This document shows, one piece after another, positions 1 through 5,342 of a stretch of 5,342 nt of DNA (the first letter of the stretch is position 1; the number at the start of each line of letters is the position of its first letter). The notes below the pieces were generated by a model. It was not told where the DNA came from, ran no database searches, and saw only the letters and a list, made by a program, of their open reading frames with translations. The DNA is taken from the sequence record MK629526. One strand, written 5' to 3'. Source of the stretch: Escherichia phage Lilleen. The position numbers and the translations under genes were made by a program.

Positions 1-1635
1 ATGTCTGTAGAACTCATCAAACCGCTCGTCGAAGCCGCTGGCATGTCGACACTTACTCAATCTCCAAACCTCCGTATCTGGAAACAGGTAAACACTCGCG
101 TAAAATTACTCGAAGAAATCCTTGCTCACTGGACAAACGGAATCCGTCGCTGCCCTGAAACCCAAGACTTCTACATGAACCCAAATTCTCAACTGGCTAC
201 TACTATTGCCTATCGTGCTCATCAAAAAGGACATAACCCAAAACTCATTCAATACCCTGACACATTTACTCTCGACGACATTATTCGCCGTAAACCAATC
301 CCTCAAACTGCCCCTGACGAACTACGCCTCTCTGATGAAATCGGTGAGGATTACCGCCTTACAGTCATCGCCATTGCTGACGAACTGCAAGAATGTTACG
401 ACGTGCTCGGACAACTTGATATTAATAACACTATAGACCACACCCCTAAAGGTAACGCCCACTGGAGTATGCTTTATGATAAACCTGTTAACACCCATTG
501 GTCACAGCTCGTATCTAAACGACCCCTTAAAGATATCCGCGCCGATTACAACTATGCAAAGGCGAAGGGTATTAAGGATGAATGCTCAAAAATGCTTGAG
601 GAATCCACCATGAAATCACGCCGTGGCTTTACCGTTCAACGATTGATGAATGCTATGCGCCAAGCCCACACTGACGGCTGGTATGTTGTATTCGACACTC
701 TTACTCTTGCCGATGACCGCATACAGGCTTTCTATGATAATCCCAATGCTCTTCGTGACTACTTCCGTGATATTGGTCGTATGGTGCTTGCTGCCGAGGG
801 TCGCTCTGCTAATGACTCACACGCCGACTGCTATCAGTATTTTTGTGTTCCAGAGTATGGCACACAGCACGGTCGTCTACATTTCCACGCAGTGCACCTT
901 ATGCGCACACTTCCTCTGGGTTCTCGTGACCCTAACTTCGGTAAGCTGGTACGCACTAATCGCCAAATAAACTCCTTGCAAAACACATGGCCCTATGGCT
1001 ATTCTATGCCCATCGCAGTCCGGTACTCCCAAGACGCATTCTCGCGCGCTGGCTGGCTCTGGCCTGTTGACTCAAAGGGTGAACCCCTTAAAGCTACCTC
1101 GTATATGGCTGTCGGCTTCTACGTCGCTAAATACGTTAATAAAAAATCTGATATTGATATGGCCGCAAAAGGCCTAGGGAATAAAGAATGGAACGCATCA
1201 CTCAAGACCAAAATATCTCTCCTACCAACAAAACTATTCAGAATCCGGATGTCCCGCAACTTCGGGATGAAGATGTTATCAATGGCGCACCTGACCGCCG
1301 AAACATTAATCCAACTGACCCAGCTGGGCTACGACTCGACCCCGTTCAACAACGTCTTGAAGCAGAACGCCAAGAAAGAGCTGAAATCGAGACTGGCAAA
1401 AGCATCTGTCGCGACCGTTTTGGCGGCGCAACCTGTAACGACCAATCTGCTAAAATTTATGCGCGATTTGACCCGAACAATCGGAGCGTCCAACCTGCAG
1501 AATTTTATCGCTTCAATGACTCAGAAATTAACACTCATGGATACTTCTGATGAGACCAAAAACTACCTTGCTGCTGCAGGAATTACTACTGCTTGCTTAC
1601 GAATTAAATCGAAGTGGACTGCTGGCGGAAAATGA
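1..1635 (+). CDS. A: Replication initiation protein A (rolling-circle HUH endonuclease)
   Basis: 544-aa ORF that I recognise as phiX174/G4 protein A: HUH-type motif 'GRLHFHAVH', twin catalytic tyrosines '[10 protein letters not shown]', conserved C-terminus '[14 protein letters not shown]'. If the window is circular, GGAGG at 5331-5335 sits 7 nt upstream of the ATG at 1 and an in-frame TAA at 5325-5327 closes the frame upstream. Stop TGA 1633-1635 overlaps the C start (ATGA). Confidence 0.9.
412..441 (+). other. Viral (+) strand origin of rolling-circle replication (A-protein nick site)
   Basis: Exact match to the conserved microvirus 30-nt origin CAACTTGATATTAATAACACTATAGACCAC as I recall it. 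The nick would fall between G418 and A419. It lies inside the gene A coding sequence, as in phiX174. Confidence 0.85.
610..1635 (+). CDS. A*: A* protein (in-frame internal initiation within gene A)
   Basis: In-frame ATG at 610 ('MKSRRGF...') preceded by GAGGA at 598-602 (7-nt spacing). Gives a 341-aa product, the same length as phiX174 A* as I recall it. Confidence 0.6.
977..1005 (+). promoter_or_regulatory. Candidate sigma70 promoter upstream of B (PB-like)
   Basis: TTGCAA (977-982), 17-nt spacer, TATTCT (1000-1005), inside gene A about 180 nt upstream of B. Weak match; position is analogous to phiX174 PB. Confidence 0.25.
1188..1550 (+). CDS. B: Internal scaffolding protein B
   Basis: 120-aa ORF nested in gene A in another frame. 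Conserved motifs 'PQLRDE', 'RFGGATC', and C-terminus 'QPAEFYRF...GYF' match phiX174 B (also 120 aa). AGGGA at 1175-1179 upstream of ATG 1188. Stop TGA 1548-1550 overlaps the K start. Confidence 0.9.
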
Positions 1636-2480: not shown

Positions 2481-3806
2481 ATGTCTAATGTTCAAACTTC
2501 TGCCTCTCGTGATGCAATTGATTTATCACATCTGGTCTTCAACACTGGCGCTATTGGTCGCCTTAAAGTCGCATCATGGACCCCTGTTATCGCTGGTGAT
2601 TCTTTCCAGCTTGACGCTGTTGGTGCTTTACGCTTATCCCCTCTGCGTCGCGGCTTGGCTATTGACTCAACTGTTGATTACTTCACTTTCTATATTCCAC
2701 ACCGTCATATCTATGGCGATGCATGGATTCAATTTATGAAAACTGGCGTCGCTGCCACTTCTCTTAACCCTGTAACCACTGGCGAATACGTTGATAGCGC
2801 CTCTTATCTTGGTGTAATCCCTTCCAAAGATGGCAAGGTTCCTAAGTTCCTGCATCAAGGCTATCTCAATATTTATAATAACTACTTCAAAGCTCCTTGG
2901 ATGGCTGACCGTACTGAGGCAAACCCATCTAACTTAAACGACGACGACCGTCGTCATGGCTTCCGCTGCTGCCATCTAAAAAACATATGGTCTGCACCTC
3001 TTCCTCCTCAAACGGAAATCACTCGCGCTATGGATACTGGCGCTACTTCCATTGATATCATGGGTCTTCAAGCTGCCTACGCCCAACTTCACACTGACCA
3101 AGAACGTGACTACTTCATGCAACGTTACCGTGACGTAATCTCTTCGTTCGGTGGCAAAACTCACTATGACGCTGACAACCGTCCTCTTCTGCTTATGCGC
3201 TCTAACTTCTGGGCTTCTGGCTATGACATTGACGGTACTGATCAAACCTCATTAGGTCAATTCTCTGGTCGTGTCCAACAAACATTCCGCCACTCTGTTC
3301 CTCGCTTCTTCGTACCGGAACACGGCGTTATTATGACTCTTCAACTCGTACGCTTCCCGCCTACCTGCACTGAGGAAACTCACTACCTCGTCGGCAAAGG
3401 CGCACTAAGCTATACTGACCTTGCGGGCGACCCTACTCTTTACGGTAACTTACCGCCTCGCGAAATCGAAATGAAAACTCTCTTCCGTGGCGCTGCTGGC
3501 TCTTCTGAAAAAATCAAAATTGCCGAAGGGCAATGGTATCGCTATCATCCTTCTTACGTTGATGGTCAATATCACAACCTTCAAGGGTTCCCGTTCATCC
3601 CAAATGGTCCAACTGGCAACATGGAAAACCGTGTACTGATTGACCATAAAAAATATGACGAATGCTTCCAGTCACTTCAATTAACTCACTGGAATGCCCA
3701 GGCTAAATACAATGTCACTGTATATCGACACATCCCAACTACTCGTGATAGTTACTACTACTATCACAAAGGCCGTCACTCCCGCCGCGTTGGCTCCTAT
3801 TATTAA
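2481..3806 (+). CDS. F: Major capsid protein F (C-terminal 17 aa are out-of-frame read-through into G sequence)
   Basis: 441-aa ORF, AAGGA at 2470-2474 (6-nt spacing). Strong similarity to phiX174 F along the whole length up to '...[14 protein letters not shown]' (codon about 424). After that the reading is '[17 protein letters not shown]' instead of the expected short '...IMTS*'. Those last codons overlap nucleotides that encode G in the +1 frame. Confidence 0.9.
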   Translation: MSNVQTSASRDAIDLSHLVFNTGAIGRLKVASWTPVIAGDSFQLDAVGALRLSPLRRGLAIDSTVDYFTFYIPHRHIYGDAWIQFMKTGVAATSLNPVTTGEYVDSASYLGVIPSKDGKVPKFLHQGYLNIYNNYFKAPWMADRTEANPSNLNDDDRRHGFRCCHLKNIWSAPLPPQTEITRAMDTGATSIDIMGLQAAYAQLHTDQERDYFMQRYRDVISSFGGKTHYDADNRPLLLMRSNFWASGYDIDGTDQTSLGQFSGRVQQTFRHSVPRFFVPEHGVIMTLQLVRFPPTCTEETHYLVGKGALSYTDLAGDPTLYGNLPPREIEMKTLFRGAAGSSEKIKIAEGQWYRYHPSYVDGQYHNLQGFPFIPNGPTGNMENRVLIDHKKYDECFQSLQLTHWNAQAKYNVTVYRHIPTTRDSYYYYHKGRHSRRVGSYY

Positions 3807-4236
3807 TACGCCAACCGTTGCGCGTAACAATCTCTTTGTGAACTTAACTACTACCGCCCTAACTTCTCCGGGCGGTATCTCTGCTGTTGTCGCTATCGAC
3901 AACTCTTCTCATACCGACAATCAGGTTATCTCTATTGCTGCCTCTCTTTCTACTGCTGGCAGTCTAGTACCTGTTCTTTGTCGGTTTGAATCTGCTACTG
4001 TACCAACGGCTATCCCCGCATCTGCGGTTACTTACTATCCGTTGGAATTTAAATTATCTGCTACTGCTCTATCCGTCAAGGACTGCGCTACTGTCTCTAC
4101 TATTTCTCGCTCTGGCAATCCTGTTTATGTAGGTATTGCCCTTATTGCGAAATCATTTATCGCCGATACTGTATACGGCTCTATCTCAATTAATCAGGTT
4201 GACCAAGAAATCACAACTCTGCAACCCCTCAAATAA
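3694..4236 (+). CDS. G: Major spike protein G (canonical N-terminus, RBS and start absent; true start uncertain)
   Basis: G-like sequence runs from about 3766 ('[16 protein letters not shown]...[13 protein letters not shown]...VKDCATV...NPVYVGI...LQPLK*'), matching G4/phiX174 G from roughly residue 15-20 to the C-terminus. Upstream, the frame stays open inside F to ATG 3694 (and ATG 3712) with no convincing Shine-Dalgarno. The expected 'MFQ.FIS.HN' N-terminus is absent. Confidence 0.7.
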
Positions 4237-4246
4237 AGGAATCTCT

Positions 4247-5315: not shown

Positions 5316-5342
5316 AGCCTCCATTAACACGGAGGCTTTAAC
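5316..5342 (+). terminator. H-A intergenic hairpin (TH-like terminator; 3' arm contains the gene A Shine-Dalgarno)
   Basis: AGCCTCC (5316-5322) pairs with GGAGGCT (5331-5337) across an 8-nt loop, followed by TTTAAC and then, across the circular junction, the A start codon. phiX174 has the analogous 'GCCTCC...GGAGGCTTTTTTATG' arrangement. Confidence 0.45.

Follow-up and report, generated by a model that had tools for sequence, protein, structure and literature searches.

The sequence analysed here, hereafter the window, is the complete 5342-nt genome of Escherichia phage Lilleen (MK629526; GC 46.93%), a phiX174-like phage with the gene order A(A*,B,K)-C-D(E)-J-F-G-H, deposited in a record rotated so that the ATG of gene A comes first. 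The nearest GenBank records are six coliphages isolated on E. coli K-12, which are 93-98% identical to the window (Lilleput, MK629525, at 97.8%; Lilledu, lillemer, Lilleto, and MG1; and SECphi17 at 93.3%). The genomes of these relatives measure 5484-5538 nt (n = 6), compared to the 5342 nt of the window. The whole-genome alignment showed three indels that occur in the window only: a 6-nt insertion at the D/J junction, a 1-nt insertion past the G stop, and a deletion of 155 nt at 3751|3752, between F and G. Exact-protein look-ups returned no recorded protein identical to F, G, or H of the window.

On the plus strand, the F ORF spans positions 2481-3806 and encodes 441 amino acids. Residues 1-424 correspond to the F protein of the relatives; the final 17 residues (3753-3803), basic and aromatic in composition, are codons 14-31 of G read out of frame, up to a TAA at 3804-3806. 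The F terminus ...TTRDSIMTS is conserved, with IMTS invariant in this clade, G4, ID2, ID18, and phiX174, and in the window the IMTS is missing. The first-pass annotation had taken the 3' end of F to be conserved, a view that fails on the loss of IMTS and the gain of the 17 out-of-frame codons. Near this end, F also contains an imperfect hairpin on the plus strand (3666-3677/3683-3694), with 12-nt arms that are 83% complementary. Farther upstream in the gene, codons 116 and 185 (window 2825-2828 and 3033-3034) carry multi-nucleotide changes to Lys and Asp, unlike all relatives and conspicuous against an otherwise synonymous background.

The G-frame ORF lies in frame +1 relative to F, is open after a TAA at 3682-3684, and ends with the TAA at 4234-4236. 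Within it, G codons 15-174 and the stop are intact (3754-4236, plus strand). The window G is 96% identical to the nearest G protein of the public collections, over 92% of the query, and the homology to the body of Phage_G continues through to the C-terminal ...LQPLK. The Pfam model PF02306 (Phage_G) matched the window ORF with 86.5 bits at profile positions 19-175, whereas Lilleput G is matched from position 1. The part absent from the window G is the conserved N-terminal MFQxF/Y...H (profile positions 1-18), which is the most conserved segment of this fast-evolving protein, and G begins with MFQ in each of the five database homologues and in the five reference phages. AlphaFold2 models of the native and the window G, built on a shallow alignment, both have pLDDT <50 across the N-terminal 40-55 residues. 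Immediately downstream, at 4237, an extra A follows the G stop (AAATAAAGG vs AAATAAGG in all relatives); this window-only insertion is non-coding and leaves the Shine-Dalgarno (SD) spacing of H the same.

G lacks its canonical start because of a deletion at the junction 3751|3752, where the window is missing 155 nt that all relatives carry from F codon 424 to G codon 14. In order, the loss takes in the third base of F codon 424 (1 nt), the 12 nt of F codons 425-428 (IMTS), the 3-nt F stop, the 99-nt F-G intergenic region with the SD of G, the 39 nt of G codons 1-13 with the ATG, and a single base, the first, of G codon 14. Thus, G residues 1-14 (MFQNFVTKHNSPQF) are gone, and the window G does not have its own SD and ATG in an F-G intergenic region, the region itself being missing. 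The first-pass annotation had reported that G lacks a canonical initiation signal; this stands, but the cause, a deletion unique to this sequence, had been missed. Indeed, the F-G arrangement is intact in nine independent close relatives (the six GenBank records, Logan SRR11461802 and SRR25667319, and JGI OBLN01002562) and likewise in phage ID2. The junction, searched with degenerate bases, had no match in viral, metagenome, or genome contigs, and the lost segment was not found moved elsewhere in the window.

All these relatives retain an F ending in ...SIMTS and its stop, a 99-101-nt intergenic region with a hairpin, the TAAGGACTACTCAAATG, and the G start MFQNFVTKHNSPQF, none of which is in the window. 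A core of about 83 nt of the intergenic region is almost invariant across the seven intact aligned sequences and the JGI contig, and it is 92% identical to that of ID2, whose G protein is 41% identical. The same 92% identity is found over the whole F-G intergenic region (Lilleput 3762-3860 vs ID2 3830-3928), whereas the whole genomes are about 80% identical; this high identity to ID2 points to very strong constraint or recombination in the region. The intergenic hairpin of the relatives has a folding energy of -20.6 kcal/mol (z = -4.3). The hairpin and the GC-rich block downstream of it are present in all relatives, and with up to three mismatches allowed (<=3), neither matched anywhere in the window. 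In the F-G region of phiX174, PriA binds the T_F terminator hairpin, which overlaps ori(-), the origin of the complementary strand; another short hairpin in this region is mutation-sensitive as well (bioRxiv 10.64898/2026.07.25.740675). Judged by sequence comparison, the F-G region of the relatives is the counterpart of this T_F/ori(-)/PriA element, and from the alignment with phiX174, we infer that their hairpin would bind PriA and prime the complementary strand. In the literature searched, nothing was found on survival of phiX174 without the PriA site.

A perfect inverted repeat of 8 bp, GTGATAGT / ACTATCAC (3745-3752/3760-3767), straddles the deletion junction, and no direct-repeat microhomology is present there. 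An inverted repeat this good arose in 0.15% of simulated 155-nt deletions, a frequency to be read as that of a post hoc observation. In Lilleput, the right arm of the repeat occurs with one mismatch, and the Lilleput fold did not predict a long-range stem joining the two endpoints in the parental single-stranded DNA. The repeat is a hint that a polymerase did switch templates, either in the cell or during library PCR, as opposed to a blind join.

Outside the deletion, the genome appears to be under normal purifying selection. Indeed, 27 of the 36 window-specific substitutions are synonymous; none of the 36 creates an SD, and none falls within 3600-3751. We considered relaxed selection on G, as would follow a long-term loss of function, and ruled it out: the changes unique to the window G are three non-synonymous and three synonymous, a ratio similar to that of G in the relatives. 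As the genome is normally selected, the deletion should be either very recent or non-biological.

Other features of the window were also recorded. The gpA protein (window 1-1635) is identical to that of Lilledu, despite a 3% difference between the genomes. At 2345-2350, the window-only 6-nt insertion changes the TAATG in which the D stop and the J start overlap in 6/6 relatives to TAA-ATATT-ATG; the reading frame of the overlapping lysis gene E is kept, its end changing from ...SCNG to ...SCKYYG, and the AAGGA of J precedes its ATG by 11 nt in place of 5. The junction of this insertion had no match in viral contigs. The J-F intergenic region carries a hairpin at 2445-2462 (GTGGGACC-AC-GGTCCCAC), then a T-rich run; in Lilledu and SECphi17, the allele is TGGGGC-TTCG-GCCCCA, with the stem kept and the sequence different. 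A further hairpin, AGCCTCC...GGAGGCT, lies between H and A at 5316-5337, with the GGAGG SD of gene A in its 3' arm, the same arrangement as in the T_H terminator of phiX174 (bioRxiv 10.64898/2026.07.25.740675).

Then, we examined the possible starts of G in the window. The ORF scan confirmed that the only ATGs in the G frame are those at 3694-3696 and 3712-3714 (plus strand; ATG3694 and ATG3712), both within the F ORF. ATG3694 is the F codon pair aAT Gcc (Asn-Ala) read in +1, and ATG3712 is the pair aAT Gtc (Asn-Val) read in the same way. Both are invariant across the relatives because they belong to the F codons for W-N-A and Y-N-V, respectively. Neither has a usable SD, as the first-pass annotation had reported: a UGGA abuts ATG3694 (aligned spacing -2), and a weak AGG lies 9 nt upstream of ATG3712. 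Its statement that the other genes have AGGA/GGAGG-type sites was also upheld. In the predicted mRNA fold, the first base of ATG3694 is in the stem of the 3666-3694 hairpin described above, and ATG3712 lies in an unpaired stretch. The proteins that would begin at these codons, 'MPRLNT...' and 'MSLYID...', had been put forward as possible N-termini of G; they are the 3' end of F in the +1 frame and not a diverged G. In Lilleput, the same +1 frame stops 15 codons after the second ATG and 21 after the first, and neither ATG combines an SD-like site 4-9 nt before it with an ORF kept in the relatives, as an internal overlapping start would. Both ATGs are ordinary F codons, and a missing SD at these positions is not anomalous in itself.

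Relative initiation rates were predicted with a simplified Salis-type thermodynamic model, a calculation of ribosome-binding strength that the first-pass annotation had suggested for the two ATGs in expecting poor expression of G. This expectation was borne out by the model, with a rate of about 0.001 for ATG3694 and 0.15 for ATG3712, compared to 7.9 for the native G start of Lilleput, i.e., about 50 times above ATG3712. Among the other genes, the predicted rates were 5.8 for D, 5.5 for F, 0.5 for H, 0.4 for J, and 0.2 for A*, and the B, K, and E starts of the window ranged over 0.10-0.44. Within F, 5/26 ATG triplets (19%, ATG3712 counted) score at least as high as ATG3712, which therefore is not marked out as a start. 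The alternative in-frame starts GTG3745, TTG3790, and GTG3838 all score <=0.04 and would shorten G further. Initiation at ATG3712 would give a G of 174 aa, exactly the native length, as happened in 2.4% of simulated deletions between the end of F and the start of G. We also considered whether the presence of an in-frame ATG could be a mark of selection for viability; this was rejected, as such an ATG arises in 66% of the simulated deletions, and the exact length is only mildly unusual.

Considering these results as a whole, we find it highly probable that G has no proper start as a consequence of the 155-nt deletion and that the sequence is an artefact or a defective replicative molecule and not a working phage. 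Three invariant features are hit together (the N-terminus of G, the C-terminus of F, and the origin-like hairpin), the deletion is unique, no adaptation is found nearby, and the sample is poor; the combination favours a sequence that does not represent a working phage. It is by chance that the junction puts ATG3694 and ATG3712 into the G frame. Most likely, the deletion is an artefact of assembly, of circularisation, or of the library in the Lilleen record; failing this, it would come from a defective replicative-form molecule in the uncloned lysate. Both imply a normal G start in the infectious phage, whose intergenic region would be intact and provide the strong site from which G is usually translated. 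The missing start is a symptom of the 155-nt loss, and a new mechanism of translation initiation is not indicated.

The provenance of the record bears on this interpretation. The Lille phages were not plaque-purified: wastewater went through two overnight liquid enrichments, and positive-well lysates were taken to Nextera XT libraries (PMC7552041). Lilleen comes from sample 33A, a mixed lysate with the myovirus garuso, and was assembled from 1058 reads at 26x coverage, in a study where coverage ranged over 20-12122x (PMC7552041). A unique indel that destroys invariant features in a genome elsewhere under purifying selection, from a low-coverage and uncloned source sample, has the profile of an artefact. 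Artefacts of circular assembly are also found at the record ends of sibling phages. SECphi17 has an exact terminal redundancy of 55 nt, so its true genome should measure about 5483 nt. Inside F, where the record ends of lillemer meet, 2 nt are superfluous, and the record of Lilledu has 1 nt too many, its final base being the A of the next ATG. A chance coverage gap was considered as the origin of the deletion and excluded: under even coverage, about 55 reads are expected on the lost segment, and the probability of none is about 1e-24. An artefact would therefore require either a handling error or a systematic dropout combined with a chimeric fragment that bridges the gap. It counts against an artefact that sibling phages with the same hairpin, and just 2-3 times more reads, were assembled across F-G. 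The inverted repeat at the junction is a further hint in this direction, as is the fact that the authors took the differences 'in non-coding regions' among the Lille phages as real (PMC7552041).

A real deletion carried by defective genomes is an unlikely explanation when taken separately, although it has points in its favour and overlaps the second branch of the preferred one. Helper-dependent molecules or dead-end replicative forms could have been enriched over the two high-density liquid rounds and have come to dominate the double-stranded DNA that Nextera can capture. The lysate was indeed uncloned and twice enriched, and the microvirus DNA captured was, in the authors' opinion, intracellular and double-stranded (PMC7552041). 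The inverted repeat would fit a polymerase template switch, the absence of decay elsewhere in the genome is as expected for a recent event, and a chance coverage gap is excluded. However, a genome without the region of the complementary-strand origin should replicate worse, not better. Moreover, the subfamily Bullavirinae is not known to produce defective interfering genomes. A full-length helper contig was not reported for sample 33A (PMC7552041).

Much less probable is a real deletion in a viable phage, and we regard this as very unlikely. Such a phage would make the 174-aa G, with a foreign 14-residue N-terminus, from the SD-less ATG3712 inside F, where ribosomes translating F could perhaps keep the site open; it would tolerate the new tail of F and make its complementary strand without the hairpin. 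The native length of the resulting G and the unpaired ATG3712 are consistent with it, and internal out-of-frame starts already exist in microviruses, where B, K, and E are expressed in this way. Furthermore, the lysate was plaque-forming, and one microvirus was reported from the sample (PMC7552041). On the other hand, viability would have to survive the joint loss of the three features named above, with a predicted initiation about 50 times under the native one for a protein needed in 60 copies. ATG3712 scores as an ordinary F-internal ATG, no compensating substitutions are found near it, its mere presence in frame carries no weight given its frequency in the simulations, and the arrangement was not found in other public sequences searched.

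Finally, expression of G by termination-reinitiation after the F stop, or of an F-G fusion by a +1 frameshift in the overlap (3694-3806), would agree with the equal numbers in which F and G are required and with the +1 frame of G relative to F, but it is extremely improbable, as the F stop comes 110 nt after ATG3694 and 92 nt after ATG3712, without the stop/start proximity that reinitiation needs; the nearby TTG3790 and GTG3838 score poorly and would drop 26-42 residues of G, including the conserved VTPAALAP; neither a slippery site nor a stimulatory structure was identified in the overlap; and a fused F-G protein of 580 residues is without precedent. The reinitiation that the first-pass annotation had allowed for is not supported.

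If the preferred reading holds, i.e., an artefact or a defective molecule, the public record MK629526 most likely misstates both F and G and is missing the intergenic region between them, and the main value of the observation is one of data quality: annotation pipelines, protein clusters, and trained models would inherit a chimeric N-terminus of G and a false C-terminus of F. Should the phage instead be viable and its deletion real, three subfamily-invariant elements would prove dispensable together, a notable result for both microvirus assembly and the priming of the complementary strand.

The comparison with known systems is as follows. The window shares with the Lilleput-like gequatroviruses and ID2 the body of F, G codons 15-174, the G stop, and the ribosome-binding site of H, with flanks 93-98% identical; these phages keep the F-G intergenic region and the native G start, whereas the window is without both. 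The F-G region of phiX174 is 62% identical to that of the relatives, with a common AAAAATTTTAATTTTT loop and GGTTGAnCAAGCG(C)AAGCGCG block, and this element is missing from the window, with no copy elsewhere in it. Like the G-frame ATGs of the window, the microvirus genes B (in A), K, and E (in D) start within another gene and in another frame; however, B and E of the window have clear AGGGA/GGAGG-type sites, and ATG3694 and ATG3712 have no usable one. Lastly, the deletion resembles the end artefacts of SECphi17, lillemer, and Lilledu, which are likewise record-specific, unshared indels in small circular genomes assembled from short reads, with the difference that the sibling artefacts are duplications at record ends, whereas that of the window is a loss, internal to a record rotated to gene A.
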